Positions 2-17,398 of a stretch of DNA of 64,000 nt are shown one piece after another. The stretch is from an uncultured virus (IMG/VR IMGVR_UViG_3300028840_007457) (lineage: Duplodnaviria; Heunggongvirae; Uroviricota; Caudoviricetes): IMG/VR virus record IMGVR_UViG_3300028840_007457. The stretch is one strand, 5' to 3'. The position numbers were made by a program, and so were the translations under genes. The notes beneath the pieces were generated by a model. It did no database searches and was not told where the DNA came from. It saw nothing but the letters and a program-made list of their open reading frames with translations. The first letter of the stretch is position 1, and every line of letters starts with the position of its first letter.

Positions 2-1120
2 GCTTTTGATATTCAAAAAATTAAAGATGGTGCTAGAAGGGGTAAGCTGTTTGGAGTAATTAGTTGTAATAAATATGGTCGAAAAGATATTACTAAAATA
101 GGAAAACAGATTAGACGTCCTGTTGACGATTTAAAGAAAGGTATGACTTTATTTTGGATGCACGATGATGATGCTGGAGATGCTAAAGAGAAAGATAGTT
201 TTTCTAAAGGGGATCCTTTTAAAATTAAGTGGATTAAAAAGAAGGGTCTTTATTTGTTAGAATATGAGGGGAATAAAATTTATGGGGAGCCAACTCCTTA
301 TGAAGAGATTGTCCCAATTCCAGATCCAGAGGAAATTGAGGAAACTTTAACCCGTGTCGGCTGTTACGACTTGCTTGAGGAGGCATTAGGTAAAATGGCA
401 AAGAAGTCCAAAAAGAAGCCTACCAAGACGTCTAAGCGTAAGGGACGTGCTGAGTATGACGAGGATGACGACGACGAAGATCTGGATAGCGAATATGAAG
501 ACGATGAAGATGAGGAAGAGTACGAGGAGGATGAAGACGAGGAAGAGTACGATGACGACGATGATGACGACGACGATGATGACGACGATGATGATTTAGA
601 TGACGACGATGAAGATGAAGACGATGATGATTTAGATGACGACGATGAAGATGAAGACGATGAAGATGAAGACGATGATGATGATGATGAAGACGATGAC
701 GACGACGACGATGATGACGACGACGATGATGATGAAGACGATGACGACGACGACGATGATGATTTAGATGACGACGATGATGACGACGATGACGACGACG
801 ATGATGACGACGATGATGACGACGATGATGACGACGATGATGACGACGATGATGACGATGATGACGACGATGATGACGACGATGATGACGACGATGATGA
901 CGACGATGATGACGACGACGATGACGACGATGATGATGATGATGATGACGATGATGACGATGATGATGACGACGACGATGATGACGAAGAACCAGCGCCT
1001 AAGAAACGTAGGTATAGTAAGAAGCGCAAAGATGCCAAAAAGAAAAAGGCAGCTCCGAAAAAGCGTGGACGTCCAAAGGGCAGCAAAAATAAGAAAACTA
1101 AAAAGAAGCGCAAGAAATAG
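2..1120 (+). CDS. 5'-truncated protein: globular N-domain, long Asp/Glu tract, C-terminal Lys-rich AT-hook (possible SSB or nucleoid/chaperone protein)
   Basis: The frame of the 143..1120 ORF is open back to position 2 (AFDIQKIKDGARRG...), so the gene starts before the window. About 180 aa of D/E, then AAPKKRGRPKGSKNKK. Confidence 0.75.
   Translation, partial: AFDIQKIKDGARRGKLFGVISCNKYGRKDITKIGKQIRRPVDDLKKGMTLFWMHDDDAGDAKEKDSFSKGDPFKIKWIKKKGLYLLEYEGNKIYGEPTPYEEIVPIPDPEEIEETLTRVGCYDLLEEALGKMAKKSKKKPTKTSKRKGRAEYDEDDDDEDLDSEYEDDEDEEEYEEDEDEEEYDDDDDDDDDDDDDDDLDDDDEDEDDDDLDDDDEDEDDEDEDDDDDDEDDDDDDDDDDDDDDEDDDDDDDDDLDDDDDDDDDDDDDDDDDDDDDDDDDDDDDDDDDDDDDDDDDDDDDDDDDDDDDDDDDDDDDDDDDDDDDDDDDEEPAPKKRRYSKKRKDAKKKKAAPKKRGRPKGSKNKKTKKKRKK
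455..991 (+). repeat. GAY/GAR trinucleotide low-complexity tract encoding poly-Asp/Glu
   Basis: About 73 uninterrupted GAT/GAC codons at 767-985, partly with 12-bp period GATGATGACGAC. Confidence 0.95.
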
Positions 1121-1648: not shown

Positions 1649-2965
1649 ATGGGAGCCAAGAAACCCGTCTTTGCATTTCATCCAGCAATTGCAGCCATTA
1701 ATGCTTTTAAAGCTGTTAAAGGTTTGGATTGTGCTCCTCTTAAAGAGGCTAGACGAGTACACAATACTGTATCTTCTGGTAGCCTTTCTATAGATTTAAT
1801 TTTAGGGGGTGGATTTCCTTCAGGAAAATTTGTAACTATTTTCGGGCCAGAAGGTTGTGGGAAGAGTACACTATTGCAGGAATTAATTGTTAGTTGTCAA
1901 ATGAATTTTATTACTGTAGTTCATTATGATTTTGAAAGTGGATCTGATCCGGTTTACATGAGTAATCAAGGTATCGATCTAGATCACAGCATTGTTTTGC
2001 CAAAGATTAATAAAAATGGGACACCAGCTAAAACAGGTAATAAGATTGAGTACCCGAATTATTTTTATTGTCAGCCTGATTTTGGTGAACAAATGTACAG
2101 ACATATTCTCGTTACTTTAAAAGCCCTCCCAGAGGTAGAAAATAAACCACCTCAAATTGTATTTTTGGTAGATAGTTTTGCTGCTATGAGTTCTGAAGAA
2201 GTAGACGACGAAACTGGTGAGGGTCGTATTGCTCCGCAAGCTAGAATGCATAGCAATTTCCTTCAAATGATTCGCCCACGTCTTAAGAGGAAAGGCGCTC
2301 TTTTACTAGGTTCTAATCAAATGAGAACTGCAATTGGTCAATGGGGCAATCCACAAAAAGAATATGGTGGAGCTGCCCTTATGTATTATCCTGACCAAAA
2401 AATAATGCTTACCAGACGGAAACTGGTTAAAGATAAAACCAAAGTTGATGTTCTTCCGATTACAGCTAGAACAACAAAAAATAAAGTATTTATGCCTCAC
2501 CGGATTTTAGAGGGATTAGGAATTATTCTTGCACGTGGTTTAGATAGATCTCTAGATGCTGAAGTCTTCCTTAAAAAGACTGGTCATCTTAAAGTAACTG
2601 GTAATGGATTGCGTCAAATTGTTTTCCCCAAAAAAGAAACTAAGAAGCTCAGTTGGATGAAATTCCGACAACATGTTGAAAATCCGAAATTTAGAGCTTT
2701 TTTATTCAGGCGTTTGAAAAAAGATAGGGTATTTGAAGAATATATGCAACATGACGGACCTCAAAATTATTTCTATGATCAAGATTTTGAAGAATATGAA
2801 GAAGAAGAAATAGATCAGGAAGAGGTTCAACGTCGCGTAGAAGAAGAAGGATCTGAATACAGAGACTTACGTAGACGCAGACGTAAGCAAGGTAAAAAAG
2901 GGAAAAAACGTTCTAAAAAACAAACTAGAAATGATGAAGAACTAGAAGAAGAAATGGCGAGCTAA
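1649..2965 (+). CDS. recA: RecA/UvsX-like recombinase
   Basis: SSGSLSIDLILGGGFPSG, Walker A GPEGCGKST, Walker B FLVDS, QARM, NQMR, GGAAL, KNKV motifs; extra acidic/basic C-tail. Confidence 0.92.
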   Translation: MGAKKPVFAFHPAIAAINAFKAVKGLDCAPLKEARRVHNTVSSGSLSIDLILGGGFPSGKFVTIFGPEGCGKSTLLQELIVSCQMNFITVVHYDFESGSDPVYMSNQGIDLDHSIVLPKINKNGTPAKTGNKIEYPNYFYCQPDFGEQMYRHILVTLKALPEVENKPPQIVFLVDSFAAMSSEEVDDETGEGRIAPQARMHSNFLQMIRPRLKRKGALLLGSNQMRTAIGQWGNPQKEYGGAALMYYPDQKIMLTRRKLVKDKTKVDVLPITARTTKNKVFMPHRILEGLGIILARGLDRSLDAEVFLKKTGHLKVTGNGLRQIVFPKKETKKLSWMKFRQHVENPKFRAFLFRRLKKDRVFEEYMQHDGPQNYFYDQDFEEYEEEEIDQEEVQRRVEEEGSEYRDLRRRRRKQGKKGKKRSKKQTRNDEELEEEMAS

Positions 2966-3468
2966 TGAAAATTAAACGTTGTAATATGTTTCTCGAAAAA
3001 GCGGATGCCATTGTTATTACTACCAACGGAGATGTTAAAAAAGATGGTGGTGCAGTAATGGGGAGAGGAGTCGCACTTCAAGCGGCTCGTTCTTGGTATG
3101 GTCTACAAAAGTTACTAGGCACTAAATTAAGTAAAAAAGGAAACAGAGTTAGGGTTCTAACTAAAAACGATGCTGCGGTTCCTTATCTTTCTTTACCTAG
3201 GAGAACAGATCCTCTTTTGGTGGCTGTTCCGTGGCATATTGTATCCTTTCCTGTTAAGTATCACTGGAAAGATAAAGCGGATTTAGAGCTTATAGAAACA
3301 AGTTGTAAACAGTTAAATAAACTGATATTGAAAAGAAATTGGAGGAGAGTGTTATTACCAAAACCCGGGTGTGGGAATGGTGGTTTAAATTGGAAAAAAG
3401 AAGTGAGAAAAATTGTTAAATCGTACTTCGGAAAATCAAATAAGGTTGTGATTGTAACTGAACCGTAG
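2965..3468 (+). CDS. macrodomain (ADP-ribose binding/hydrolase, DarG/TARG1-like)
   Basis: DAIVITTNG, VMGRGVA, FPVKYHW, LPKPGCGNGGLNW motifs. Confidence 0.85.
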   Translation: MKIKRCNMFLEKADAIVITTNGDVKKDGGAVMGRGVALQAARSWYGLQKLLGTKLSKKGNRVRVLTKNDAAVPYLSLPRRTDPLLVAVPWHIVSFPVKYHWKDKADLELIETSCKQLNKLILKRNWRRVLLPKPGCGNGGLNWKKEVRKIVKSYFGKSNKVVIVTEP

Positions 3469-3497
3469 CAACCTTTGGCAACGAAAGGAAACATCAA

Positions 3498-3827
3498 ATG
3501 CCAAAAAAGAAGAGAACAAAGAAAACAGATGCAGCTCCTAAGAAGCGCGGGCGTCCTAAGGGAAGTACAAACAAGAAAGCTGGAACTCCTGCTGGTGATG
3601 CACCTACAGCAAAGCAGGTAAAAGCTCGCATTAAGAAAGCGAAAGCAGACGTGGGTGTTAAAATTGTGACTACTTCTAAGGTTAAGGAAGTGCTGAAAGC
3701 TACCGGTCTTCGTGCTGAGAAAGATATTGAGGCATGGCTGGCCAATGAGCTTTATGCTATGATCAAAAAAGCGTGTCTTCGCACCCTTCGTAATGGTCGT
3801 AAGACTGTGCGCGGCTGGGACCTTTAA
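3498..3827 (+). CDS. bacterial-type histone-fold protein (Bd0055/HMf-like) with Lys-rich N-terminal AT-hook tail
   Basis: C-terminal ~57 aa IVTTSKVKEVLK...CLRTLRNGRKTVRGWDL carries the histone RKTV-x-x-x-D signature. N-tail contains KKRGRPKGS. SD AAAGGA upstream. Confidence 0.85.
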   Translation: MPKKKRTKKTDAAPKKRGRPKGSTNKKAGTPAGDAPTAKQVKARIKKAKADVGVKIVTTSKVKEVLKATGLRAEKDIEAWLANELYAMIKKACLRTLRNGRKTVRGWDL

Positions 3828-3875: not shown

Positions 3876-4937
3876 GTGACTCGTTTCCTCCATACGGCGG
3901 ATATTCACCTGAATGCCCTTAGAGAATTTGATGGATTTTTAAGGAGGGTGGAGAAGACACTTCAGAGTATAACTGATATTGCTGTTATACATGAAGCTGA
4001 TTTAATTGTAGTAGCTGGAGATATTTATCATAGTAAAAGTATTACTCACCTTGAACGGCAACTATTGAGCGATTGGCTTGGTTCATGCCCCCTTCCTATT
4101 ATTGCTATAAGCGGAAATCATGAAGATAGATCTGAAGATTTGGGGGATACGTCCCTTAGCTATCTTTCTAAAATAAAACATAAAAAACATTTTGTTTATG
4201 ATAATTACCCTTCTTTCTTTAAGAAAAAGGGTTGTTATTTTATTCTGTTCCCTTTTGCAGACTGGACTAATAACGAATTTAGGTTACTGCTTGAAGCTAT
4301 CTTAGAAAATATTCCAGAAGATGATTTACCTATTGTGGTTGTACTTCATGAATATCTAAGAGGGGCAAAAACAGATACAGGTTTTGTAAAAGAAAAAGGG
4401 GGACAAATTGTACTTGTGGAAAATTTGTTTCCAAGAGTTACCTACTGGGCTTTGGGAGATGTTCACAAGTGCCAAAAGATAATCTCCAATGCCTGGTATA
4501 GTGGTTCACCTCATCAAACTCGCTTTGATGAAAAATTACCCAAAGGTGTTCTTTTAGTAGATACAGATAATCCTACCGAACCTGAAATTATTCCAATTAC
4601 TAGCTCACCGCTTATACATTGTTCAAAATTACCAGAAGAAATTCCGTCAGATGCTTTTATAGATTTTGAACCCGAAACTCTCGCAGATGCTGCTGTTGGA
4701 GAATTGCCTCCAAATGTTAAATATCATCCAAATGCTAAGTTGTTTAAACGTCAAAGAACAAGCAATCTAGAAAATATAGAGTTTGGATTATTTGCTCAAC
4801 TTGACGACTACTTAGATGAAGCTGGATTAAGCCACAAGATGAAAGGTCGCAGCTGGCGGTATTTGAGGAAAATTGGAAAAAGTTTAGGTGTTAAAGTTCC
4901 TATTCCTAAACAATACAAGCGAAAGAAAAAAGTCTAA
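3876..4937 (+). CDS. sbcD: SbcD/Mre11-like metallophosphoesterase nuclease
   Basis: HTADIH, VAGDIYH, SGNHE, ALGDVH, YSGSP motifs. Confidence 0.9.
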   Translation: MTRFLHTADIHLNALREFDGFLRRVEKTLQSITDIAVIHEADLIVVAGDIYHSKSITHLERQLLSDWLGSCPLPIIAISGNHEDRSEDLGDTSLSYLSKIKHKKHFVYDNYPSFFKKKGCYFILFPFADWTNNEFRLLLEAILENIPEDDLPIVVVLHEYLRGAKTDTGFVKEKGGQIVLVENLFPRVTYWALGDVHKCQKIISNAWYSGSPHQTRFDEKLPKGVLLVDTDNPTEPEIIPITSSPLIHCSKLPEEIPSDAFIDFEPETLADAAVGELPPNVKYHPNAKLFKRQRTSNLENIEFGLFAQLDDYLDEAGLSHKMKGRSWRYLRKIGKSLGVKVPIPKQYKRKKKV

Positions 4938-5857
4938 TGGAAGAATCTTTGATTATACATCACCGGGGTTGTAGTGATGGGATTTGTGGAGCCCTTGTTC
5001 TCTATTTAGGCTTGGGTGAAAAAGCAGAAGTCATGTCTGCTCAATATGGAGAAGATCCTCCTCCAGATGAAGTTATTACAGATAGAGACATATGGATTGT
5101 CGATTTTAGTTATTCACGAGATACGTTAGTGCACATGAACGAAATTGCCTCCAATCTTATTGTTTTAGATCATCACGAAACTGCTAAAAACAATTGTGAA
5201 GGTTTAGATTTTGCCACTTTTGATATGAACAGAAGTGGAGCACAACTCGCATTTGATTTAGTAAAAGGTTTGCCTACAGCTGCTAGCAAAGAGTTTAAAG
5301 AAATCAAATCTATTCTTGAACAATTAGTTGGTTACGTTCAGGATAGAGATTTGTGGCAATGGAAATTATTGGGAAGCAGAGAAGTAAACGCATGGTTAGC
5401 TAGTTGGCCTAGAGACATTGAAACCTGGATTCAAATTCTAAATTTTCTTAAAACATCTTCTGACGCTGAACCCACACTGCCAAATGCTGTTTCTGGTTAT
5501 GGAGCAGCTATTTTAAGGTCACAAGATCAACAGAAAAAATCTTTACTAGCTGGAGCGTGGCCTGGAGTTGCAGCTTCTGTTCCTGGTTTTTCTGTTGTTA
5601 AAGTTATGATTGCCAATAGTCCTATTCTGCAAAGTGAAGTTGGAGAAGAGTTGGCCTTAGTAAAAGGTTGTGATATGGGAGTGTGTTGGTTTCAGAAAAA
5701 TGACGGTGAGTACGTTTATAGTTTGAGAGCTAGTGATAATGGTTTTGACGTCTCTTCTTTTGCCCAGCATTTTGGAGGTGGTGGACACAAAGCTGCTTCT
5801 GGATTCACTAGTGATAAAAGCCCAGAGGAAATATTTGCCAGAGTTTTTGCCGACTAG
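4937..5857 (+). CDS. DHH/DHHA1 family phosphoesterase
   Basis: CSDG, VDFSY, LDHH, DRDLWQW, SLR, GGGGHKAASGF motifs. Confidence 0.9.
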   Translation: MEESLIIHHRGCSDGICGALVLYLGLGEKAEVMSAQYGEDPPPDEVITDRDIWIVDFSYSRDTLVHMNEIASNLIVLDHHETAKNNCEGLDFATFDMNRSGAQLAFDLVKGLPTAASKEFKEIKSILEQLVGYVQDRDLWQWKLLGSREVNAWLASWPRDIETWIQILNFLKTSSDAEPTLPNAVSGYGAAILRSQDQQKKSLLAGAWPGVAASVPGFSVVKVMIANSPILQSEVGEELALVKGCDMGVCWFQKNDGEYVYSLRASDNGFDVSSFAQHFGGGGHKAASGFTSDKSPEEIFARVFAD

Positions 5858-5864
5858 TTTTTAA

Positions 5865-7499
5865 ATGTCTTTACAATGTCATTACCACATTTATCAGGGG
5901 GACTGTTTAGAGCGATTAAAATCCATTCCTTTTGGAAATTGTGTAGACTTAATTGTTACAGATCCACCTTATGGATTGAACTTTATGGCATCTAAACCTT
6001 TTTGGGATAAGGCTGTACCACCTGTTGAAGTTTGGAAAGAATGTTTTAGAGTCCTTAAACCTGGTGGCTTCGCTTTTGTACAATGCATTCCTCGTCAAGA
6101 CTGTCTCAGCAAAATGATTTTAAATTTACAAGAGGCTGGATTTGAAACCAATTTCACCAGTCTTTACTGGACATTTGCTACAGGAATGAATAAAGGTACT
6201 AATCTTAGTAAAGAAGCTGATAAGAAAGCCGATAAAAAACGTAAAAAATCTGGATTAAGCTCTAGTAATCCGAATTCTAAAAAAGGTGGTTATAAAGGAA
6301 AACGGTACAAAGAAAAAAGAGAAACAAAATTTGGAGTTGTTCAAGATCAACCAGACGATACAATTCCAACTACTCCAGAAGCAAAAAAACTGGATGGATC
6401 TTTTGGAGGATTCCAACCCAAACCCGCCACAGAAGTCATCTTATGCGTAATGAAACCAATCGAAAAAGTGACAAGAGAACAACTCTATCAGAGCATTGGT
6501 TGGGATTATTGGTACACTAGCGTAAGGAAACTGAAAACTAAAAAACAAATTGCAGCTTTGCAGAAAAAATACGGGTCCAAAAAATATATCAAAATTGGTA
6601 AAACAGTTAAACGACGTTTGGCTCTTAATCCTGATTTAAAAGATGAAGTGTGGTGCGGTAAGAAAAAACTGGAAAGTAAACCATACAAAAATACCACCTT
6701 TAAGACATTTCTTACTCAAGCTTTGGTAAATGGTAAAGGTTGTACTTGGTTGGGAGATTGTAGAATTCCTACTAAAGATTTTGTAACAGTGCTTAATATA
6801 GGTGTACCAGGGAATAATTTCAACGATGATTCTTATGTATGGTCCGGTGTAGATTATTATATGTCGTCTGAGGGTCGTTTCCCTGCTAATATTCTTGTAA
6901 GTGATGACAGTTTAAATGATGGTTTTAAACGAACTAGTGGTAAAATGAAAGCCAATACTAAGCGTAGAAATAGAAAAGGATATAGTGGTAAAATGCCCAA
7001 GAAAACCAATGCTGAAACTATTGGAGATTCTGGTTCATTTTCTCGTTATTTTGATTTAGATGCTTGGTTTTTAAAATTTGTAAATGACTTACCTAGTAAA
7101 GCTCAAAAGACTTTTCCTTTTCTTATTGTTCCTAAACCTAGTAAAAAAGAAAAGAATGTTGGTTTAGAAGATTTACCGGAAAAAATAAGCGATCCTATTG
7201 CTAGGCATAGAGGTAGAAGGATGAAAAAACCATCTCGTATTGATGGTAAACCACCTTCTAAAATGGCAAATCACCATCCAACGGTAAAACCCGTTACACT
7301 TATGAGTTATTTAATTACTCTCGGGTCACGTCCTGGAGATATTGTTTTAGATCCGTATTGTGGTAGCGGAACTACAGGTATAGCAGCTCGCCTTCTTAAT
7401 CGTACTTTTATTGGTATGGAGTTAAATAAAGAGTATGCTCGAATTGCAAAACGTCGTATTGGAAAACCGACTAAACTGTTTGTAAAGAAGAAGTCATGA
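5865..7499 (+). CDS. DNA N6-adenine/N4-cytosine methyltransferase (beta class), orphan
   Basis: GDCLE, TDPPY near the N-terminus; HPTVKP and DPYCGSGTTG near the C-terminus. Confidence 0.92.
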   Translation: MSLQCHYHIYQGDCLERLKSIPFGNCVDLIVTDPPYGLNFMASKPFWDKAVPPVEVWKECFRVLKPGGFAFVQCIPRQDCLSKMILNLQEAGFETNFTSLYWTFATGMNKGTNLSKEADKKADKKRKKSGLSSSNPNSKKGGYKGKRYKEKRETKFGVVQDQPDDTIPTTPEAKKLDGSFGGFQPKPATEVILCVMKPIEKVTREQLYQSIGWDYWYTSVRKLKTKKQIAALQKKYGSKKYIKIGKTVKRRLALNPDLKDEVWCGKKKLESKPYKNTTFKTFLTQALVNGKGCTWLGDCRIPTKDFVTVLNIGVPGNNFNDDSYVWSGVDYYMSSEGRFPANILVSDDSLNDGFKRTSGKMKANTKRRNRKGYSGKMPKKTNAETIGDSGSFSRYFDLDAWFLKFVNDLPSKAQKTFPFLIVPKPSKKEKNVGLEDLPEKISDPIARHRGRRMKKPSRIDGKPPSKMANHHPTVKPVTLMSYLITLGSRPGDIVLDPYCGSGTTGIAARLLNRTFIGMELNKEYARIAKRRIGKPTKLFVKKKS

Positions 7500-9132: not shown

Positions 9133-11589
9133 ATGCCTACCATTGAATTGTTAGATTTCAGGCTGAGAAATGCCTCTATTTATTTGTCAGCTGAAATTCC
9201 TTTGGCTAATCAGGGTTTAGTTATACATAGAGGTTTAAATTTAGATGATGGGGGATTTTTAGGATCTGGAAAAAGCACAGTTCCTGATAGCTTAGCTCGT
9301 TTACTTGTAGGAAAAAGCGGAAAGAAAGATACAGCTGACGATATTATTAATTTCTCAGCTAAGAAAAATTTGGAGAAAAGTCTTCGTTTAAAAATAGATG
9401 ACCGACCTATTCAAATTAATCAATTTAGAAAACATAATCTATATGGCAATAAAGTAGAAGTTTTAGATTTAGATACAGGAAAAGATATCTTACCCAGAGA
9501 GCATAGAAAACATCCTCATACTTGGATTAGAGACCAGCTTCTTCAGATTGATGAGACTAGCTTCTTCAATTTAGTTTATCTAACCCAAGATTTGAATCAC
9601 GTGCTCTTGCACGGTAAAGACGGAGAACGTCGTAAAAAACTAACCGTAATGTTTAGTTTAAATGTCTACGATGATTTTTATAGTCAATTAAATACACAAA
9701 TTAGTTTGGTAGAAACTGAAATTTCTCAACTTGATAGATTAAAAGCTCAAATTGAAGAAATAGAAAGTCAGTTAGAAAAAGCAGGCAAGCTTAAAACCCT
9801 AAAAAATAAGTACGTAAAAGCAGCTCAAAAAGCAGATGCTATGCAGGCAGGTTTTATTGCAACTCAAAACGAATTAGAGGAGCAGCAAGAATTACTAGCA
9901 TCTCTTAAGCTGCGTTTTACCAAAGAGGAAGAACTGCAAACTTTATGGTCTAAATACGACCATCTTCTGAAACCTAAATTTGAACAGAAAAAACAACTTA
10001 CTAAAGTTGCACTTAAATCTTTGCAAGAGTCTCTCAAAAATTTAGCTAAAAAGAAAATCACTCTTGAAAATCAAGAAGAAGATCTTAGAAGAAGATCTGT
10101 TATTGAAAGTCAGTTAAGTAAATTAGATGAGTCTTTAGAAGAAATTGAATCATTGGAATCTATAGAAGAAGACTTAACTAGCCTAAAAACAACTTTACAC
10201 CATTTAAAAGTTGTAGAGCTACCAAAAGCAGAGAAGAAACTAGAACTGCAAGAAGACCTTTCCCAAATCGAAAAACCACCAACGAATATTCATAAGCTTC
10301 AAGAAGAAAACGAAGCTCAAATTTCTGCAATAGCAGAATTAACCAGTACAATAAAATCTGTTAATCATAGATTGGAAAAAGGTGTTTGCCCAACATGCGG
10401 TCAAGCTAGAAATCTAACTAAAGAACAAGTTGATGAACTGCAAATTAAGTTGGCTTCTTCGAGAGATGCATTAAAAAAGAAAAAACGTAGAAATTTCAAA
10501 CTCAAGTCATCTCTCGAATCTTATGAACAATATCTTAGGTTGGCAGATCAACTAAAGACTATTGACTGTGATTCCACACTTCAAGAAATAAACACTAAAA
10601 TAACTAAACTTCAGAAAAAAGAACGTAAGTTGTCATCCATTCTTGAACTTGTAAAGCAAAAAGAACGTTTAGAGACATTGTTAGAAGCACTACCTGAAGG
10701 AAATTTGGAAGACATTAAAACAAAACTGCCTAAAATCAGGAATAATTATCGAGAGCTTAAAAAATTGGTAGAGGTAGTTATTAAAATACGACGTATTAAC
10801 TTGGAGCTTAAACCTCTTCCAAGAGGAAACAAAAATGAAGTATCGAAAACAGTTCAGCAATTAAAAACTGATGTAAGAACTTTGAGTAGCCGATACAAAA
10901 AATATAGCAGCAAAGCAGCCAAATTAGAAATAAAAATAAATCACATAAAAAGTCTATTGGAAAGGATTTCAGAACTAACTTCCAAATTAAAAGAAAGTTC
11001 TAAATTACAGAATAAACTAACGTGTTTCAAGGCTCTTAAAACTGCTTTTCATCCCCAAGGAATGAAACAAGCTAGATTTCAACATATTTTAAAAGAGGCC
11101 ACTGAAAAAACAATTCCTGCCTATTCTTCCATGTTATGGCCTCGTAAGAAAGTAAGCTTAGAATTCGGAGGAGAAAATAATCTTCAGTTCTATCTTTGTC
11201 GTAAAGGTAGAAAATCATCAGTTAAGAGTCAGTTATTGAGCGGTGGAGAGAAACATAAAGCTGGGTTAGCTTTCCTACTTGGAATGAGAGATTTAAAAGA
11301 GCTTTATACAGATAGCTCTTTTAATATTTTGATTATTGACGAACCTTTTGGTAATTTAGATCCTCCTGGAGAAGAAAGCCTACTCTCCATTTTAGAAATG
11401 CTTAAAGAAAGATTCTCTTCTATATTTGTAATAAGTCATAGACCTGAAGTGATTAACAGTTCAGTATGGGACCAGACTTGGTGGTCAATTCGAGAAAACA
11501 ATGTAAGTAAACTTTATACTTCAACAGCTCCTCCAAAGAAATACCGACGTTTAGCAGCAAAGATGTTATCAACAGAAGGTGCATTGTGA
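9133..11589 (+). CDS. sbcC: SbcC/Rad50-like SMC ATPase
   Basis: Walker A GSGKS, long coiled coil with central CPTCG zinc hook, LSGGE signature, IIDEP, ISH. Confidence 0.92.
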   Translation: MPTIELLDFRLRNASIYLSAEIPLANQGLVIHRGLNLDDGGFLGSGKSTVPDSLARLLVGKSGKKDTADDIINFSAKKNLEKSLRLKIDDRPIQINQFRKHNLYGNKVEVLDLDTGKDILPREHRKHPHTWIRDQLLQIDETSFFNLVYLTQDLNHVLLHGKDGERRKKLTVMFSLNVYDDFYSQLNTQISLVETEISQLDRLKAQIEEIESQLEKAGKLKTLKNKYVKAAQKADAMQAGFIATQNELEEQQELLASLKLRFTKEEELQTLWSKYDHLLKPKFEQKKQLTKVALKSLQESLKNLAKKKITLENQEEDLRRRSVIESQLSKLDESLEEIESLESIEEDLTSLKTTLHHLKVVELPKAEKKLELQEDLSQIEKPPTNIHKLQEENEAQISAIAELTSTIKSVNHRLEKGVCPTCGQARNLTKEQVDELQIKLASSRDALKKKKRRNFKLKSSLESYEQYLRLADQLKTIDCDSTLQEINTKITKLQKKERKLSSILELVKQKERLETLLEALPEGNLEDIKTKLPKIRNNYRELKKLVEVVIKIRRINLELKPLPRGNKNEVSKTVQQLKTDVRTLSSRYKKYSSKAAKLEIKINHIKSLLERISELTSKLKESSKLQNKLTCFKALKTAFHPQGMKQARFQHILKEATEKTIPAYSSMLWPRKKVSLEFGGENNLQFYLCRKGRKSSVKSQLLSGGEKHKAGLAFLLGMRDLKELYTDSSFNILIIDEPFGNLDPPGEESLLSILEMLKERFSSIFVISHRPEVINSSVWDQTWWSIRENNVSKLYTSTAPPKKYRRLAAKMLSTEGAL

Positions 11590-12088
11590 TATGTTGGTTC
11601 GAGTATTTACAGCTTTAGCTAATGGAGGATCTACCAGTTTACATTATTGGTTACAATATTTTCTTCCTGAAGAAACTGTAGGAAGAATTAATCTAATTAA
11701 AGACCACATTATACTGGAAACACACGAAGGCTCTGAAATTAAATTAACCAATGGAATTCTATATAAGAAATTGAAGAGAGGTAGACCAAAATTCACCATA
11801 CCTTTATTGGTTGAAATTTGTAGAATGTACGATCACTCTATTGGAGTGGATAAGCTTTTAACCGATTTTTTGAATCAATCTCTAAACACAAATTTTAAAC
11901 TGTTGCCCTTTTACATAAGTGCTGGTAAACTTGTTACTTTAGTATCAACTAAATCCTTATCAAAAACTGATAGTAAAGGTTGTAAAGTAGTAACGAAAAC
12001 ACAAAGAAAAGAAACCGTTTTGGAATTGAATTCCAGCAAACGGTTACAAACAGTACTGGTAGATCTAATCAGGAGACAAGCCCTGTGA
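11579..12088 (+). CDS. hypothetical protein
   Basis: 169-aa ORF coupled to its neighbours; contains KRGRPK. Start uncertain. Confidence 0.6.
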   Translation: MHCDMLVRVFTALANGGSTSLHYWLQYFLPEETVGRINLIKDHIILETHEGSEIKLTNGILYKKLKRGRPKFTIPLLVEICRMYDHSIGVDKLLTDFLNQSLNTNFKLLPFYISAGKLVTLVSTKSLSKTDSKGCKVVTKTQRKETVLELNSSKRLQTVLVDLIRRQAL

Positions 12089-13022: not shown

Positions 13023-13088
13023 AGCTGCTACACTTTACACGCCCTTGGGCATCACAGCAGGAACAGATTGTTCTTCAAAGGAGTCGTA

Positions 13089-14171
13089 ATGGCTAAGAAG
13101 AGAAAAAAGCACAGCACAAAGTCCAAAAGCCATCGGCATGAAGAGGACGAGTATGAGGATGTAGAGACCGAGGAGGAGGATGAGTCTGAGGACGAAGAAG
13201 AGGAAGATGAAGAGTATGAAGATTACGATGACGATGACTCAGATGATACTGTAGATGAGGACGACGACGATGATGACGATGATGACGACGACGATGATGA
13301 CGATGATGATGACTCCGATTCTGACGATGGTGATGATGATGACTCCGATGACTCCGATTCTGACGATGGTGATGATGATGACTCCGATGATGACGATGAA
13401 GATGAGCGTGAGAAGAAGCCTAAGAAAAAGAAGAAGCGCGGTCGCAAAAAGAAACTAGCTAAAGATAAAGACACTACACCCGTCTACAAAGTACAAAAAG
13501 GATTTACGGTAGACGACAAGGAGTATGAAGTAGGGGACGTTATTCCGATTACCTGTGGTACATGTACCATGTTTAACCGGGAAATAATGGGACAAGTCTT
13601 CTGCAAAGAGGGGGAACGTCTAGATCCCGACGATCCTAAAACCAAAGTCATTAAAAATAATTTCAGCTGTGGGCAATACTACGTCAACGTAGAAAATGCT
13701 AAGGCGTTTGAAGATTTTAATGACAAGCTTCCTTTCTCTGCTCGGGAAGCCGTGCGTAGGTTACTACCGTCTTACCGCAAACTGTTAGAAATGCGGACCA
13801 AGATTATAGATGATGCTGAGTCTGGAGAAGGTGTTAAGCTTTTTGCTGCTGCTTTCAGTTGGCTTCAGAAAAACTTTGTGCATGAGGATCAAATTCTCTA
13901 TATTACTCCTCTTATTCGTGCTCTTAATCGTAGGCAACGTCAACAGAAGTCTCAAAAAGCCCTTCCTCTTAAGGGCGGCATGACTGTGCAGTGGGATGAC
14001 GAGAAAACTGGAGAGCGTCTGGAAGGTATTATTTTTAAGACCTACCAAGGGCAAATTAGTATTGCCATTCTCGAAGGTAAATACAGAGGCAAACGTCGTA
14101 CATTCCGTCTAAAGAACTTCCGTCAAAACATGAATGTCGAAATCGTGGAGATGACGGCGGAAGACGACTAG
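13089..14171 (+). CDS. acidic D/E-tract protein with Cys cluster and C-terminal SH3/Tudor-like beta domain
   Basis: SD AAAGGAG before ATG 13089. Basic N-terminus, ~90 aa acidic tract, basic patch, CGTC..C..C, then GMTVQWDD...EGIIFK. Confidence 0.75.
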   Translation: MAKKRKKHSTKSKSHRHEEDEYEDVETEEEDESEDEEEEDEEYEDYDDDDSDDTVDEDDDDDDDDDDDDDDDDDDSDSDDGDDDDSDDSDSDDGDDDDSDDDDEDEREKKPKKKKKRGRKKKLAKDKDTTPVYKVQKGFTVDDKEYEVGDVIPITCGTCTMFNREIMGQVFCKEGERLDPDDPKTKVIKNNFSCGQYYVNVENAKAFEDFNDKLPFSAREAVRRLLPSYRKLLEMRTKIIDDAESGEGVKLFAAAFSWLQKNFVHEDQILYITPLIRALNRRQRQQKSQKALPLKGGMTVQWDDEKTGERLEGIIFKTYQGQISIAILEGKYRGKRRTFRLKNFRQNMNVEIVEMTAEDD

Positions 14172-14253: not shown

Positions 14254-15876
14254 ATGAAAAAATCCACCAAAACACAAGTTGAGGAAGCCTTTAATTGTTT
14301 GGAAAGGCTGGAGGTGTACGAAAAGAACAAAGAGAAAAAAATCCTTTTGGAAGAAACAAAAACCAATCCAGTTTTAAAAACCATTTTTAAAATGGCTCTT
14401 GGGCAGGATCGGTACTTTGTTCATCCTATAATAAAAACCGCCCGTTGTACTTCCGAAATAACTCCACATGACTCTTGGCTTAAATTTGTTAAGCTGGCCA
14501 GTTACCTTAAAGAGCGTCGTTGGGGTTCTAAAAAAGCTACTGCTAAAACCAAAGCTCTACTTCTCAAAAGTGACCCTCTAGTAGCTAAATGGTTATTGAG
14601 AATTTTAGACCATGACCTTCGTGTAGGAGTAGGTCCGAAAACAATTAAATCCGTTTTTGGTTTAGGTTTTCTCACAGAAGGTAAGACTGGTACTAACAAT
14701 GCCTCTATGCAGTTTAGAGGGTGTATGTTGGGGTTGGCCTACAAAAGACTTCCCAAAAAATACAAACCATTAAAATTTCCAAAAGCTGGTGAGTATAAAT
14801 TAGACGGAGAAAGAGCCCTTCTTTTTATTTTTCAAAAAGTCAAAAAGGTAATTATAGTCAGTAGGGCTAACCGGCGAAAAAAGCATATTGAAAATGTCGA
14901 ACTCTTTACTAGACAGCTTTTTAGTTTGGCGAGAGACTTGGTAGGCCCTGAAGAAGATGTCTTCATTGATGGAGAATTCCTAGCAAAGTCGTGGAATAAA
15001 ACTTCTAGTATCGTGAGTAGTTATAAGAACTTCAATGAAGCAGAATTTCTAGATGATGTTCGAGCTGTAGTATGGGATTGGGCACCTCTTAAAGCCTACG
15101 AAGCTGGTATTTTTGAAATGCCTTGGGAAGAACGCAAACATCATCTCTTAGGCTGCTCGCAAGAAGGAGCGGCTCTCAATCCTTTAAAGATCACCCCCAA
15201 GGTGTACTATCGAAGCCCTAACATAGGTATTCTAGGCCACAAAATTCTTAGAATGGAGGAAGCTCTCCATAAATTCTACAATAGGGCTCTGGACCGTAGT
15301 TTTGAGGGAGCAATGATTAAGACTGTAGATGCCCCGCTTCGTTTGGATGACCACAGAGGCCCTGATGTGATTAAATTTAAGGCAGAGGAAGAGGCTACTG
15401 GAGTCATTGTGAGGTTGGAGCCTGGGAAGAAGGGGAAGAACGCAGCAGCAGATCCAGAGATTACGGATAAAATCTACAGGATAATGAAAAAGGTTGGAAA
15501 GGTAAAAAAGACAAAATACTACTTGCAAGTTCGACCTTCTTTTGATACAGTAGAAGAGCTGGAGTCGTTTATTCAGAGACTTAAGAAAGCGGCTAAAGAC
15601 TCATCTGCTCGGAGAGTTTATTGCACCCCCAAAGGCGTAGTAACCTTTAGACACAGTGCCCGATTACGTCGTTTTATTGTACGGTACGACGGTAAGGAAT
15701 TTGCAGTTGGAGGAGGTCTGGAACATAAAGGTGGATCTGATCAGCGTATGGAGCTGTGGAAGCAGAGGAAAGAGTTGGTAGGCATGAAAATAGATTTCCT
15801 CTTTCAAAAAGATCCCGATCCAGTAGCAGTTGCCAGATTTAATCAATTTGTCCGTATACGACGAGATTTGTCGTAA
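14254..15876 (+). CDS. ATP-dependent DNA ligase
   Basis: Motif I EYKLDGER, FIDGEF, EGAMIK, IKFK, C-terminal OB fold (VGGG, ARF..FVRIRRD). Confidence 0.9.
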   Translation: MKKSTKTQVEEAFNCLERLEVYEKNKEKKILLEETKTNPVLKTIFKMALGQDRYFVHPIIKTARCTSEITPHDSWLKFVKLASYLKERRWGSKKATAKTKALLLKSDPLVAKWLLRILDHDLRVGVGPKTIKSVFGLGFLTEGKTGTNNASMQFRGCMLGLAYKRLPKKYKPLKFPKAGEYKLDGERALLFIFQKVKKVIIVSRANRRKKHIENVELFTRQLFSLARDLVGPEEDVFIDGEFLAKSWNKTSSIVSSYKNFNEAEFLDDVRAVVWDWAPLKAYEAGIFEMPWEERKHHLLGCSQEGAALNPLKITPKVYYRSPNIGILGHKILRMEEALHKFYNRALDRSFEGAMIKTVDAPLRLDDHRGPDVIKFKAEEEATGVIVRLEPGKKGKNAAADPEITDKIYRIMKKVGKVKKTKYYLQVRPSFDTVEELESFIQRLKKAAKDSSARRVYCTPKGVVTFRHSARLRRFIVRYDGKEFAVGGGLEHKGGSDQRMELWKQRKELVGMKIDFLFQKDPDPVAVARFNQFVRIRRDLS

Positions 15877-15907
15877 TTCCCAAATGCCAAATCATAGGAG
15901 AAATCAA

Positions 15908-16351
15908 ATGGCAAAACCAGAAACCAAGCTTGTTAACATGTCCGCTTCACAGGTGTTCGGACTACTGACAAAGGGGTCCATTGTGAAGGCCCGCGCTGGC
16001 GTTCTTACCGTCGAGATGACGTCTCGTAAGAACACCACTACCTACATCGTTCCGATTAACGGTACGGTGGTAGAAGAGGTGGTAGAAGCTCCCGATGATG
16101 GAGAGGCACCCAAGAAGCGTCGTGGTCGTCCTCCCAAGAAGAAGGCTGCCGATGATGCTCCCAAGAAGCGTCGTGGTCGTCCTCCCAAGAAGAAGGCTGC
16201 CGATGATGCACCCAAGAAGCGTCGTGGTCGTCCTCCCAAGAAGAAGGCTGCAGCAAAGAAAACAGGTAAGCGTGGTCGCCCCAAGGGTAGTGGAAAGAAG
16301 GGTAAGAAGGCCAAGAAGAGCAAGAAGAATCTTCTAGATCTTAAGCTCTAA
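15908..16351 (+). CDS. HMGA/H1-like multi-AT-hook DNA-binding protein
   Basis: SD AGGAG before ATG 15908; small N-domain, then 3x KKRRGRPPKKK plus KRGRPKGS. Confidence 0.8.
   Translation: MAKPETKLVNMSASQVFGLLTKGSIVKARAGVLTVEMTSRKNTTTYIVPINGTVVEEVVEAPDDGEAPKKRRGRPPKKKAADDAPKKRRGRPPKKKAADDAPKKRRGRPPKKKAAAKKTGKRGRPKGSGKKGKKAKKSKKNLLDLKL
16106..16252 (+). repeat. 51-bp tandem repeat (~3 copies) encoding DDAPKKRRGRPPKKKAA
   Basis: Units start at 16151 and 16202, with a partial copy from 16106. Confidence 0.95.
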
Positions 16352-16396: not shown

Positions 16397-17398
16397 CTAT
16401 CCAATTTTGGCGTGGGAAATTCCACTGCCAAATATCAGTGTGCCCCGAGATCCATAAAGGCTCCACCCCATTAAAGAAACCCCTAAAATAGACTTGTCTA
16501 TGGATTCTATTTCTATTGGAATTTTTTCAGTTCTTACGCCCACTTTTTGGGGTGGTCCAAACATGAAGTAATCTGTAAAATCGAGACCACAACCAAACTC
16601 ATCTTTTTCAGAGCCACCACAAATAATAGACACATCTCCAAATTTTCCAACTTGTCCTGTTGCCCAATTACTTTTATTATCTGGATAAAACCACTGAGCT
16701 TCTTCCACTATAAAAGCTAATACCGCTGGAGTAGTCAGCAGTGTGGGGGCTGGTATTTGTTTTTCCCAAAGTTTATGCCTAATAGTATTAAAAGATGCTG
16801 GAGAAAATTGTTCGCAAAGCACCGTGTCTTGTGCCCCCTGTTTGAGTAAAAATACTACGGTAGCATTGTCTTTAGCAATAGTTTCTTTTACCATTTCATT
16901 TAGAAATTCTTCTACTACCTTTTTGGGATTGTCCTTAAACTCTCCCCGTTTTCTTTCAAAATTAAATTCTATGGGTAGGGATGGAACAAAAACAAACCCT
17001 ACTTTGGCAGCAGATTCTGCGGAATCACCAGGTGCTGCAAAGAATACCAAATCATTTTTAGGAATTCTAACTCGGGCATGTGCTCCCATTTCTATTTTCT
17101 GATAAGCTAAAATATGATTGCTCAATCCTAAATGTACATTAAGCCAATCATAACATTCTTGCAAATTAAATGTTAAACTTAATAAAGCTGCTCTAGTATC
17201 GTTTTCTACTTTTTTAAAGTAGGAGTTTAAAACTCCATCTTCTTTTTCTACGATTTTAACCCTCCTTTTTAATTCTCCTTCCTTCCAAGCTAAAAAGAAT
17301 TTTTGTAGAGTGGGGAAATCGGTTTGAGTTACCTCTTTTCCTTTTTCGTCTACAAAGACAACAGTACAGCTGAAGTAGGGGAAATCTCTGTTTTGCAT
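16397..17398 (-). CDS. HK97-fold major capsid protein-like protein (divergent)
   Basis: SD AAGGAG before ATG 17398. Pattern FVPSLPIEFN...VVEEFLNEMVKETIAKDNATVVFLL...ATGQVGKFGDVSII...PPQKVGVRTEK...MGWSLYG resembles large-phage capsid proteins (from memory). Confidence 0.55.
   Translation of the reverse strand: MQNRDFPYFSCTVVFVDEKGKEVTQTDFPTLQKFFLAWKEGELKRRVKIVEKEDGVLNSYFKKVENDTRAALLSLTFNLQECYDWLNVHLGLSNHILAYQKIEMGAHARVRIPKNDLVFFAAPGDSAESAAKVGFVFVPSLPIEFNFERKRGEFKDNPKKVVEEFLNEMVKETIAKDNATVVFLLKQGAQDTVLCEQFSPASFNTIRHKLWEKQIPAPTLLTTPAVLAFIVEEAQWFYPDNKSNWATGQVGKFGDVSIICGGSEKDEFGCGLDFTDYFMFGPPQKVGVRTEKIPIEIESIDKSILGVSLMGWSLYGSRGTLIFGSGISHAKIG

Follow-up and report, generated by a model that had tools for sequence, protein, structure and literature searches.

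Results

A histone gene within a tailed phage's recombination module

The stretch of DNA analyzed here, called the window throughout, comprises 64,000 nucleotides of an uncultured virus (IMG/VR record IMGVR_UViG_3300028840_007457) and carries a short gene for a histone-like protein within an array of co-oriented DNA-metabolism genes (Table 1). Its open reading frame matches, letter for letter, the one quoted in a first-pass annotation of this DNA, with KKRGRPKGS at residues 15-23 and a C-terminus that reads NGRKTVRGWDL. The same annotation had placed the gene in the recombination operon of a tailed phage, and both parts of that description proved sound. RecA-, SbcD- and SbcC-like genes and a ligase gene make up the module, and the window also encodes a terminase (2.8e-94), a portal protein (8.4e-73), a prohead protease (2.3e-38) and a tail spike, which assign it to the Caudoviricetes. 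The structural genes start about 17 kb downstream of the histone gene in the same orientation. The phage is of jumbo size, the longest contig measuring 298 kb and the nearest record (G001) 222 kb at 63% estimated completeness. GC content lies between 0.34 and 0.42, and the phage DNA is 61% A+T.

Table 1. Features of the histone locus and of possible partner genes, with positions in the window.
Feature	Position	Strand	Basis or remark
Hyper-acidic poly-Asp protein, 5' end outside the window	2..1120	+	160 Asp + 37 Glu in 372 aa
RecA-like recombinase	1649..2965	+	Pfam RecA 1e-31; same operon-like array
Macro-domain-like protein, directly upstream of the histone	2965..3468	+	Pfam Macro 21.6 bits (cut-off 22); PHROG 335 5e-24
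Shine-Dalgarno-like AAAGGA	3484..3489	+	8 nt 5' of the ATG, read from the sequence
Histone gene, 109 aa + stop	3498..3827	+	ORF reading and homologues
Disordered basic tail, residues 1-37	3498..3608	+	AF2: no secondary structure, pLDDT 51-66
AT-hook-like segment PKKRGRPKGSTN, residues 14-25	3537..3572	+	Pfam AT_hook below cut-off
RGRP core, residues 17-20	3546-3557	+	Within the AT-hook-like segment
Extra N-terminal helix alpha0, residues 38-52	3609..3653	+	AF2 helix; family-conserved
Alpha3-truncated histone fold (predicted), residues 55-109	3660..3824	+	Profiles, AF2, structure searches
SbcD/Mre11-like nuclease, directly downstream of the histone	3876..4937	+	Pfam Metallophos 3.6e-12; PHROG 100 1.6e-23
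SbcC/Rad50-like ATPase, recombination module	9133..11589	+	PHROG 77 4.4e-57
Second hyper-acidic protein	13068..14171	+	30% D/E, then a K/R patch
Small basic protein, three tandem PKKRRGRPPKKKA repeats + KRGRPKGSGK	15830..16351	+	Four AT-hook-like cores

Two viral contigs, L003 and L004, encode histones that are 47% and 35% identical to the phage histone, respectively. Both proteins are rows of a published table, where they are labeled Caudoviricetes / Bacterial-like (Liu et al., hLife 2025, PMC13681535; preprint 10.1101/2024.12.06.627149). The search for synteny among phage relatives that the first-pass annotation had suggested was rewarded in L003, in which ten genes are collinear with the window at 26-60% identity and the histone again sits between the macro-like and SbcD genes (60% identity for the macro-like protein, against L003 2..277, and 45% for SbcD). 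The context in L004 differs, its histone lying amid nucleotide-metabolism genes, and no further gene common to L004 and the window was detected at E<=1e-5. A scan for sigma-70 promoters and terminators identified none flanking the histone gene, and promoter-like sites were fewer than in shuffled sequences (14 versus 26).

Evidence that the N-terminal tail is translated

The ATG of the histone gene is preceded by a properly spaced AAAGGA, and the L003 orthologue likewise begins at an ATG, 4 nt past the end of its macro-like gene. Across the relatives P0002-P0005 the tail is conserved in frame, including an indel that keeps the frame. Additionally, the peptide AAPKKRGRPKGSxNKK is encoded by both the histone gene and the poly-Asp gene; the two copies differ at 9 of 48 nucleotides, 8 of the 9 differences are synonymous, and, judged by these codons, purifying selection acts on the peptide in both genes. 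It is very improbable that the tail is untranslated, its frame open by chance, and that the true start is a GTG at V52 yielding a tail-less 58-aa histone: the codon is present, and the long database form of HLp turned out to be wrong, but this sole alternative start is without support comparable to that of the ATG, conflicts with the conservation just described and would set the protein apart from the 11 of 21 family singlets that have long tails. We conclude that the N-terminal tail, as far as sequence comparison can tell, is translated and is not a 5' leader.

A predicted C-terminal histone fold

With the single sequence as query, Pfam gave no histone family at E<=1, PF00808 included, and the entries DUF3306, CM_2 and VLTF3 (E 0.06-0.2) were rejected as noise. 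NCBIfam and PHROGs likewise gave no family for the single histone sequence, and a match to PHROG 14814 is confined to the tail. Among PDB sequences, the single sequence matched HLp (9qt0) with an E-value of 5.8e-4 across residues 56-108, while a tail-free family profile (A3) gave E-values of 1.2e-19 for HLp, 1.9e-12 for HTkC, and 9.8e-10 and 1.8e-9 for HBb. With this profile as query, 559 of 1663 candidate proteins scored E<=1e-3; many of these are assigned to PF00808 or named 'histone H3/H4'.

The AF2 monomer model (mean pLDDT 69.9) places alpha1 at residues 59-68, alpha2 at 77-98 and a one-turn alpha3 at 106-108. When the model was submitted to Foldseek, the top 8 rows were all histones, with HLp at a TMt of 0.87, HTkC at 0.82 and HBb at 0.72-0.78, at weak E-values, the best of which was 1.6e-2 and none of which reached 1e-3. 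VIA aligned 54 residues of HLp with an rmsd of 1.7 Å and a Z of 6.3; HBb scored 5.5-5.7, a tie within 1 unit, and HMfA/B 4.3-4.6, all values below 8, where Z may mirror merely a common helical arrangement. Against the BFVD viral models, Foldseek returned 0 rows at E<=1e-3, and giant-virus histones and two unnamed proteins were matched weakly.

The three-helix histone fold claimed in the first-pass annotation is borne out by the AF2 helices, the profile match to HLp and the histones that head both structure searches. The Foldseek comparison with Bd0055 and HMfB that it proposed put HBb (Bd0055) among the top histone matches, together with HLp and HTkC. Its RKTV/D signature is present as an RxTxxxxD motif, and the Bd0055 termini that it quoted agree with our alignment to HBb chains 8cmp and 8fvx. 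AF2 predicts the fold and the four-copy model described below predicts a handshake dimer; we are highly confident that residues 55-109 take the histone fold and form such a dimer, as modeled.

Invariant residues point to a face-to-face tetramer

R95, N99, R101, T103 and D108 are invariant in all 21 family singlets, R101, T103 and D108 being the residues of the RxTxxxxD motif, or RD clamp. Their spacing equals that of R48, N52, R54, T56 and D61 in the logo of face-to-face (FtF) histones and that of R49, N53, R55 and D62 in HLp. Logo residues R48 and N52 are missing from bacterial dimer histones, according to Schwab 2024 (Nat Commun, PMC11390915); in HBb, the columns of R95 and N99 are occupied by S and D. 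Since the phage histone has both residues and HBb has neither, the closest class is FtF (HLp/HTkC), which suits the protein better than the Bd0055 dimer type taken as the nearest comparison in the first-pass annotation. With alpha3 at 106-108 and the protein ending at 109, the fold is alpha3-truncated, a class in which alpha3 has 3-4 residues and alpha2 is shortened, and the alignment to HLp runs gap-free through the C-terminus.

Other classes were considered and rejected. A nucleosomal histone (HMf, H3/H4), whose alpha3 has about 10 residues and whose dimers meet in a four-helix bundle, is disfavored by the single turn of alpha3, by HMfA/B scores below those of the alpha3 histones and by the absence of PF00808 from the Pfam matches; a bacterial dimer histone of the HBb type, by the presence and invariance of R95 and N99; and the 'phage histones' of Schwab 2024, by a fold that is C-terminal here with nothing after it and by the RxTxxxxD motif.

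Modeling of a homotetramer, another of the proposed checks, gave a confident FtF assembly for four copies of residues 36-109; a confident multimer prediction of this kind is what Schwab 2024 uses as the operational definition of an FtF histone. The ipSAE was 0.91 against 0.07 for the best control, a scale on which the mark is reached by 20 of 30 proteins solved as one-chain pairs and by one of the 23 single-chain structures, although that calibration used two copies whereas the histone run used four. Contacts agreed between runs to at least 98%, partner pLDDT was at least 94, and the second interface involves residues 94-95, 98-99, 101, 105 and 107-108. HLp and HTkC tetramers have already been solved, and the complex score may therefore reflect likeness or memory. 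Taken together, the model and the invariant columns suggest that the protein probably forms an FtF tetramer, two dimers joined via R95, N99 and R101.

The main structural alternative, a dimer-only histone that bends DNA as HBb does and forms no tetrameric wrap, seems unlikely to us. HBb is a clear match by profile (E ~1e-9), by TMt and by a Z that ties with HLp, and the extra helix and tail might obstruct packing into a tetramer. Against this, the profile search scores HLp ten orders of magnitude better than HBb, the face-to-face contact of the four-copy model runs through exactly R95 and N99, and these two residues are invariant here though absent from bacterial dimers according to Schwab 2024.

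The histone very probably binds DNA, a prediction based on residue correspondence with HLp. Of the nine HLp residues in contact with DNA, 5 are identical in the phage histone and 2 more are replaced by Lys; S60, K61, K63, K67 and T103 are counterparts of crystallographic contacts.

A basic tail with an extra helix and an AT-hook-like motif

The 54 residues preceding the histone fold contain 19 K/R and 3 D/E, for a net charge of +16, and the fold itself carries +7. Where the first-pass annotation saw a Lys/Ala/Pro tail of about 50 residues, the basic N-terminal extension is real, but AF2 divides it into a disordered segment and a conserved helix, alpha0. A segment of the type K-x-x-x-x-R-H-K-x-F is conserved in alpha0 in the family alignment (A1), and in the four-copy model alpha0 touches alpha1 of the partner chain. 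Within the family, the sequence ahead of the fold reaches 53-74 aa.

An AT-hook had also been claimed for the tail. The sequence KKRGRPK (residues 15-21) does have a GRP core with basic flanks, but the tail scores 12.0 bits (E 0.2) against Pfam PF02178, whose gathering cut-off is 17.4, so we describe the motif only as AT-hook-like. The L004 N-terminus scores 14.0 bits against the same cut-off; it carries a PRGRPRK of its own, which suggests that such cores originated repeatedly. Given the sub-threshold score of the tail and a GRP core present in just 5 of the 21 family singlets, the hook does not characterize the family. Comparison of the tail alone with PDB sequences did not retrieve any AT-hook peptide chain; its one match, at E 1.7, is a chance one. 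Within this phage the motif is conserved and recurs, RGRP being found 8 times among 55 ORFs against 0.18 expected.

Possible partners encoded by the same phage

A basic patch that contains AAPKKRGRPKGSKNKK (about 1049-1096) closes the poly-Asp protein; its gene was read without the 5' part, and the nearest record, G001, stops about 0.8 kb short of the window start. The second hyper-acidic protein has an orthologue at L003 7048..8067 (29% identity, E 7e-30). The small basic protein scores 11.6 bits against Pfam AT_hook, below threshold.

The phage also encodes a 1061-aa SNF2 ATPase whose C-terminal module (L007 4175-4540) matches the histone family profile (E 3.1e-6; hhalign 93%). This module retains the R, N, R and D residues, has lost the DNA-contact residues of alpha1 and is conserved in P0156; BLASTP did not align the SNF2 C-terminus with the histone, so the link is one of profiles only. 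The SNF2 ATPase ending in a histone-fold module and the two hyper-acidic proteins of the window are possibly new.

Distribution of the family

A scan of viral contigs gave 49 pattern matches and 2 confirmed relatives, while tblastn against 50,697 deposited phage genomes gave no histone match at E<=0.01. We also scanned 185,579 species genomes with the back-translated pattern R-K-T-V-R-x-W-D-[L/F], which is narrow, and obtained 82 stretches; one of the 80 examined encodes a relative, a tail-less 59-aa histone from Nanoarchaeota. This narrow scan revealed no cellular copy of the tailed subfamily and hence no clue to the host. By terminase, the nearest cultured phages infect Proteobacteria, at an identity below 30%. 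With no tailed copy among these cellular genomes and terminase kin this distant, we found no backing for the earlier suggestions that the host lineage has histones and that the phage protein poisons host chromatin.

Two sequencing runs contain this DNA. Both are DNA runs, from sediment and seawater metagenomes, and perhaps both environments are sources; no RNA run is listed.

Discussion

We favor the explanation that this gene, carried by an uncultured marine jumbo phage, is likely to encode an FtF (alpha3-truncated) histone that coats replicating phage DNA. Handshake dimers would pair face to face via R95, N99 and R101 into a tetramer like that of HLp or HTkC, and DNA would wrap along the basic rim of this predicted tetramer. 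Helix 38-52 may rest on the partner's alpha1 and so enlarge the basic surface, while the disordered tail could contribute non-specific charge and its RGRP core could enter the minor groove of AT-rich DNA. The shared orientation of the genes and the conserved place between the macro-like and SbcD genes suggest that the histone is expressed with the DNA-metabolism genes, in which case it would coat and compact phage DNA as it replicates. As a side benefit, the coat would protect this DNA against nucleases or silencers of the host. Genomic position only suggests timing and target, and we regard the case that the histone acts on the phage's own replicating DNA as evenly balanced.

The strongest competing role, somewhat unlikely in our view, is an attack on the host nucleoid, in which the protein, produced early in infection, would condense or silence host DNA (host shut-off) or displace nucleoid proteins. 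A protein as strongly basic as this one could do so, and alteration of the host nucleoid is one of the roles floated for viral chromatin proteins in Liu 2025 (PMC13681535); host shut-down is similarly raised for an H1-like protein in the moraphage paper. The conserved neighbors of the phage histone are recombination and repair genes, however, not known host-takeover genes, and an AT-hook-like tail would prefer the AT-rich phage DNA if host DNA is less AT-rich.

We consider it quite unlikely that the histone is a virion protein, co-injected with the genome after neutralizing its charge and condensing its ~300-350 kb in the capsid. Tailed-phage capsids hold DNA packed at near-crystalline density, which would leave scant room for wrapped tetramers, and the gene lies inside the replication/recombination block, away from the head genes. 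Jumbo genome size and the structural genes downstream in the same orientation speak for such a role, as does the compaction for packaging that the moraphage authors suggest for their H1-like protein. That protein (PF07432) was rejected as a relative: it is a different protein without a histone fold, and PF07432 is not among the families listed for this ORF.

A role chiefly as a protein-protein adaptor that pairs with the SNF2 C-terminal module, DNA coating being secondary, appears improbable. The profile match of that module, its retention of R, N, R and D minus the alpha1 DNA contacts, and its conservation in P0156 are what such pairing would call for, but the free histone has kept its own DNA-contact residues and a +16 tail that a pure adaptor would not need, and the homo-oligomer is predicted with confidence.

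Computational surveys have recorded phage histones of this FtF type before (Liu 2025). Tailed-phage histones have been known only since 2024-2025 and solely from such surveys, and our literature search found none that had been purified or studied during infection. The present locus is a well-defined candidate for a first bench test, for its protein is short and clearly marked as FtF, and both tail and helix can be separated from the fold; its conserved position in a recombination module and possible partners within the same genome add to its appeal. If the histone coats phage DNA, a protein coat would join the strategies by which jumbo phages are known to shield their genomes, and if the SNF2 protein pairs with it, the origin of the remodeler-histone partnership would become testable outside eukaryotes.

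Comparison with known systems

A more speculative reading, to which we assign a low probability, is that the phage carries a chromatin kit that arose independently of eukaryotes. A tailed FtF histone would coat the AT-rich genome; the SNF2 motor might dock through its C-terminal histone fold, by handshake or face to face, and slide or evict the histone; one or both hyper-acidic proteins might serve as histone chaperones or charge buffers; and the four-hook, HMGA-like protein might vie for the same minor grooves. In eukaryotes, histone-fold proteins partner SF2/SNF2 translocases, as CHRAC-15/17 does with ISWI and MHF with FANCM. These pairs resemble the phage proteins in joining an SNF2-family motor to a histone-fold module, a likeness of architecture alone; they differ in that the phage module is fused to the C-terminus of the motor and a separate free histone exists besides.

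The tail motif is presumably close to the AT-hook of HMGA-type proteins (PF02178), sharing an R-G-R-P core with Lys/Arg flanks followed by K-G-S. HMGA proteins join their hooks to an acidic tail, and the poly-Asp protein of the phage is reminiscent of this arrangement. Unlike them, the phage histone has a single hook joined to a histone fold, and its binding to the minor groove is only predicted.

HBb/Bd0055 of Bdellovibrio bacteriovorus (PDB 8CMP, 8FVX) shares the alpha3-truncated fold, the S-K-V-K motif of alpha1 and G-R-K-T-V in loop 2, but it is without equivalents of R95 and N99, is classed as dimer-only and has no tail. The 'phage histones' of Schwab 2024 (PMC11390915) likewise come from tailed-phage metagenomes and have an alpha3-type fold; their fold is N-terminal and followed by a C-terminal tetramerization helix, they have no R-T-D motif and they are predicted to bridge DNA. 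The same source reports positively charged tails for most bacterial FtF histones, and tails are also described in Liu 2025; where the FtF class is concerned, the first-pass view that long tails are missing from most prokaryotic histones is thus out of date.

To the viral FtF histones (VFFHs) of the Caudoviricetes, Liu 2025 ascribes an FtF-like fold, a predicted tetramer and a Lys-rich N-terminal tail of 5-40 aa. The present protein shares the Caudoviricetes genome, the predicted fold and tetramer, and the Lys-rich tail, of which 37 aa are disordered here, whereas its family has 53-74 aa before the fold against the published 5-40, and the main text uses neither 'AT-hook' nor 'jumbo'. Supplement files 1-2 of that paper (PMC13681535) do not contain the label VFFH, and no VFFH is put to a bench test in the sections covered here.

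Sequence, profile and fold comparisons all rank first the bacterial FtF histone HLp of Leptospira perolatii (PDB 9QT0-9QT2), aligned over residues 56-108 without gaps at ~40% identity. The two proteins share the R/N/R residues of the tetramer as well as the RD clamp, and in both a one-turn alpha3 ends the chain. HLp is a cellular protein of 63 aa with about 7 disordered N-terminal residues, for which tetramer formation and DNA binding are experimental; the phage protein is viral, places 54 residues before the fold and is predicted to do both.

The histone fold

The histone ORF reads exactly as the first-pass annotation had quoted it, with a Shine-Dalgarno AAAGGA 8 nt 5′ of its ATG; a scan of the window found no promoter-like or terminator-like sites flanking the gene. 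Residues 1-54 contain 19 Lys/Arg against 3 Asp/Glu (net +16), with KKRGRPKGS at residues 15-23. The fold part adds a net charge of +7 and ends in NGRKTVRGWDL. The tail is translated: relatives P0002-P0005 preserve it in the same reading frame across an in-frame indel, and the ATG of the orthologue on L003, a 17.8-kb marine viral fragment, sits 4 nt past the upstream gene.

With the single sequence, Pfam returned only noise (E 0.06-0.2), NCBIfam nothing, and PHROGs one entry matching the tail only. The best PDB-sequence match was 9qt0 (E 5.8e-4, residues 56-108, ungapped), which is HLp of Leptospira perolatii, a tetrameric bacterial histone that wraps DNA. An exhaustive phmmer search of residues 50-109 against 1.84 billion representatives recovered 36 proteins at E≤1e-3 and 4 at E≤1e-10, the query's own protein counted; 18 have one matching stretch (singlets) and 18 have two (doublets, ~120 aa). 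The singlets plus 3 close relatives formed a 21-row alignment that excluded the doublets. A profile of 11 rows, built without the tail, matched 559 of 1663 candidates at E≤1e-3, many of which have a PF00808 domain precomputed or are named "histone H3/H4" by JGI. Against PDB sequences, it found HLp at 1.2e-19, the archaeal face-to-face histone HTkC at 1.9e-12, and the Bdellovibrio dimer histone HBb (Bd0055) at 9.8e-10 and 1.8e-9.

The AF2 model (mean pLDDT 69.9; 77-86 over the fold) leaves residues 1-37 without structure and places helices at 38-52, 59-68 and 77-98, followed by a single turn at 106-108. Foldseek E-values were weak (best 1.6e-2, none at ≤1e-3), the domain being very short, and the top rows were HLp (TMt 0.87), HTkC (0.81-0.82) and HBb (0.72-0.78), then eukaryotic H4 and H2B. 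VIA gave Z 6.3 for HLp (1.7 Å, 54 residues), 5.8 for HTkC, 5.5-5.7 for HBb and 4.3-4.6 for HMfA/B; these values are insufficient alone, but combined with the profile E-values they prove the histone fold. The printed HBb alignment confirms the Bd0055 termini given in the first-pass annotation. The histone fold and dimer are well supported.

The nearest named relatives (P0006, P0057, P0077, P0151 and others) are doublets of ~119-124 aa and singlets. The doublets come from Poseidoniales archaea and the candidate-phyla bacteria Peregrinibacteria, Peribacterales and Altimarinota, and the singlets from DPANN archaea. Four tandem doublets (P0012, P0019, P0031, P0037) start with hydrophobic N-termini resembling signal peptides, a feature that would be unusual in proteins that bind DNA. 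When species-representative genomes were scanned with a narrow pattern, no cellular member of the tailed subfamily turned up; one of the 80 fetched loci was real, an archaeal histone without a tail.

A face-to-face histone

In Schwab 2024 (PMC11390915), α3-truncated histones are defined by an α3 of 3-4 residues. Face-to-face histones have R48 and N52 at the dimer-dimer contact and R54, T56 and D61 as an RxTxxxxD clamp, and "bacterial dimers" such as HBb are without R48 and N52. Five columns are invariant in our 21-row alignment (R95, N99, R101, T103 and D108), and their spacing is identical to that of the face-to-face logo. In HLp, R49, N53, R55 and D62 fill the roles of R95, N99, R101 and D108, whereas HBb has Ser and Asp at the two diagnostic columns where the window histone has R95 and N99. 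The RKTV-type signature was correctly recognized, but R95 and N99 place the protein in the face-to-face type instead of with Bd0055.

Modeled as four copies, residues 36-109 gave an ipSAE of 0.91, compared to 0.07 for the best control. In the calibration, which used two copies, 20 of 30 proteins solved as one-chain pairs and 1 of 23 solved as single chains reached the ipSAE mark, and because HLp and HTkC tetramers are already solved, the score may reflect likeness. The three runs share at least 98% of their contacts, with partner pLDDT of at least 94. The scored copy has a large handshake interface with one copy and a second, small interface with another through residues 94-95, 98-99, 101, 105 and 107-108, which in the model is the face-to-face contact. 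The model backs a tetramer without demonstrating one, and we consider the predicted face-to-face tetramer moderately supported.

The crystallographic DNA contacts of HLp map onto the window histone at a constant offset. Five are identical (S60, K61, K63, K67, T103), two have become lysine (K75, K102), and two differ (T59, A73).

The N-terminal extension and RGRP motifs

The extension consists of a disordered stretch and helix 38-52. This helix is conserved across the aligned family, even in 79-aa members without a basic tail, and the complex model places it on the partner's α1 (residues 41, 44, 45, 48 and 49 against 65, 68 and 69). The residues ahead of the fold number 16-34 in 10 of the 21 singlets and 53-74 in 11, and the long tails have net charges of +15 to +19.

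The RGRP motif reported as an AT-hook is present, but Pfam AT_hook aligns to residues 14-25 with 12.0 bits against a cut-off of 17.4, so we call the segment AT-hook-like rather than a certified AT-hook. Five of the 21 singlets, those of the window clade plus P0005, contain a G-R-P core, which also occurs independently at the extreme N-terminus of a relative on L004, a hypersaline 70-kb phage fragment. That viral histone has its own AT-hook-like start, MPRGRPRK (Pfam 14.0 bits), followed by a mixed KE-rich tail.

The 16-aa peptide AAPKKRGRPKGSxNKK of the histone tail recurs in the basic patch that ends the upstream hyper-acidic (poly-Asp) protein, in which D/E runs extend without a break for 43 and 75 residues. 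Of the 48 bases encoding the peptide, 9 differ between the two genes, 8 of them synonymously. Across 55 chosen window ORFs (19,581 aa), RGRP was observed 8 times versus 0.18 expected from composition. Together, the recurring peptide with its synonymous divergence and the RGRP excess argue that the motif matters.

In the second hyper-acidic protein, a D/E/S tract of ~95 residues precedes KKPKKKKKRGRKKK and a conserved C-terminal domain; both histone-bearing phages have an ortholog (29% identity to L003, E 7e-30), and both hyper-acidic proteins have a basic patch after the acidic tract. In the small basic protein, a 17-aa repeat containing PKKRRGRPPKKKA occurs three times in tandem, and KRGRPKGSGK brings the number of AT-hook-like cores to four, in an HMGA-like layout (Pfam AT_hook sub-threshold, 11.6 bits). 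A 169-aa protein also has KKLKRGRPKF.

Features of the window and related viral fragments (L007 is a stretch of G001, the nearest related viral record)
Feature	Location	Strand	Remark
Hyper-acidic protein	2-1120	+	372 aa, 5′ end beyond window; 160 Asp + 37 Glu = 197 Asp/Glu
Macro-domain-like gene	2965-3468; L003 2-280	+ (window)	abuts histone gene in both phages
Histone	3498-3827	+	109 aa
DHH/DHHA1 phosphoesterase and N6/N4 DNA methylase	4937-7499	+	between SbcD and clamp-loader gene
RGRP-bearing protein	11579-12088	+	169 aa
Second hyper-acidic protein	13068-14171; L003 7048-8067	+ (window)	30% Asp/Glu
Small basic protein	15830-16351	+	probable start, Met 26 codons in
L004 histone relative	L004 7890-8168	+	92 aa
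SNF2-family ATPase	G001:C1:94857-98042 = L007 1358..4543	+	1061 aa; ~120 kb from histone gene, outside window

Gene neighborhood and phage genome

The local gene order is RecA, macro-like, histone, SbcD, DHH phosphoesterase, DNA methylase, clamp-loader subunit, SbcC and ATP-dependent ligase. Ten genes of L003 stand in the same order as in the window, with 26-60% identity, and the L003 histone (47%) is likewise flanked by macro-like (60%) and SbcD (45%) genes. The DHH and methylase genes are missing at that position in L003, an insertion or deletion within a module that is otherwise collinear. L004 differs, its histone (35% in the fold) sitting among nucleotide-metabolism genes. The macro-like gene scores 21.6 bits with Pfam Macro (cut-off 22) and matches PHROG 335. 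Its pairing with a histone may recall macroH2A, or ADP-ribose removal in DNA repair.

Among the window's genes are those for a terminase, a portal protein, a prohead protease and a tail spike; its GC content is 0.34-0.42, and no tRNA gene was found in it. The histone protein is also present on a 298-kb contig, and G001 is a 221,679-bp linear fragment estimated to be 63% complete. The window genome is that of a jumbo tailed phage. Its DNA is present in one sediment and one seawater metagenome. Among cultured phages, the closest terminases belong to jumbo phages of Proteobacteria, at <30% identity, a weak hint of a proteobacterial host.

A histone-fold module on an SNF2 ATPase

In G001, the family profile found a second match (E 3.1e-6) at the end of an ORF encoding an SNF2-family ATPase (SNF2-rel_dom 3.4e-16, Helicase_C) that contains an intein-like Hint/LAGLIDADG insert dividing it in two. 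The final 61 residues of the ATPase align over the entire histone fold (hhalign 93%, E 3.3e-7); BLASTP produced no alignment between this C-terminus and the histone. An orthologue, P0156 (668 aa), is without the insert and keeps the module. Across the 13 rows of an ungapped MAFFT alignment, the SNF2 module included, the interface and clamp residues R, N, R and D do not vary, while in the module T103 is replaced by V and the α1 DNA contacts S60, K61, K63 and K67 by E, L, T and N. The AF2 model of the module (pLDDT 80-96) resembles HLp (TMt 0.86-0.87, rmsd 1.0-1.2 Å), a likeness that is not independent evidence because the MSA contained histone sequences. That the SNF2 module, the acidic proteins and the four-core protein work jointly with the histone is conjecture.

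Interpretation and comparison with known viral histones

On our best reading, the window histone would be tetrameric and would coat replicating phage DNA, its target and timing being inferred from context only. The phage histone, its basic tail and the recombination module of the first-pass annotation are upheld, while the Bd0055 type, the true AT-hook and the degree of novelty are not. Full-text literature searches turned up no bench work on a histone from a tailed phage. The "moraphage" jumbo-phage paper describes an Hc1/H1-like protein rather than a histone fold.

The "phage histones" of Schwab 2024 (PMC11390915) are described as having an N-terminal fold, a C-terminal helix and no R-T-D motif, an architecture different from that of the window histone; positively charged tails are common on the bacterial face-to-face histones covered there. 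Novelty is lower than claimed, as tailed viral face-to-face histones were reported by Liu et al. (preprint 10.1101/2024.12.06.627149; hLife 2025, PMC13681535), whose main text does not contain the terms "AT-hook" and "jumbo". Their IMG/VR survey describes "viral face-to-face histones" encoded by Caudoviricetes, which are predicted to form tetramers and have N-terminal tails of 5-40 aa rich in Lys. In the supplementary protein table, the L003 and L004 histones appear as Caudoviricetes "Bacterial-like", and the L003 entry (17170-17502) is the same gene that we identified. Because Liu et al. describe and list them, this kind of protein was already in print and the window histone's family already detected.
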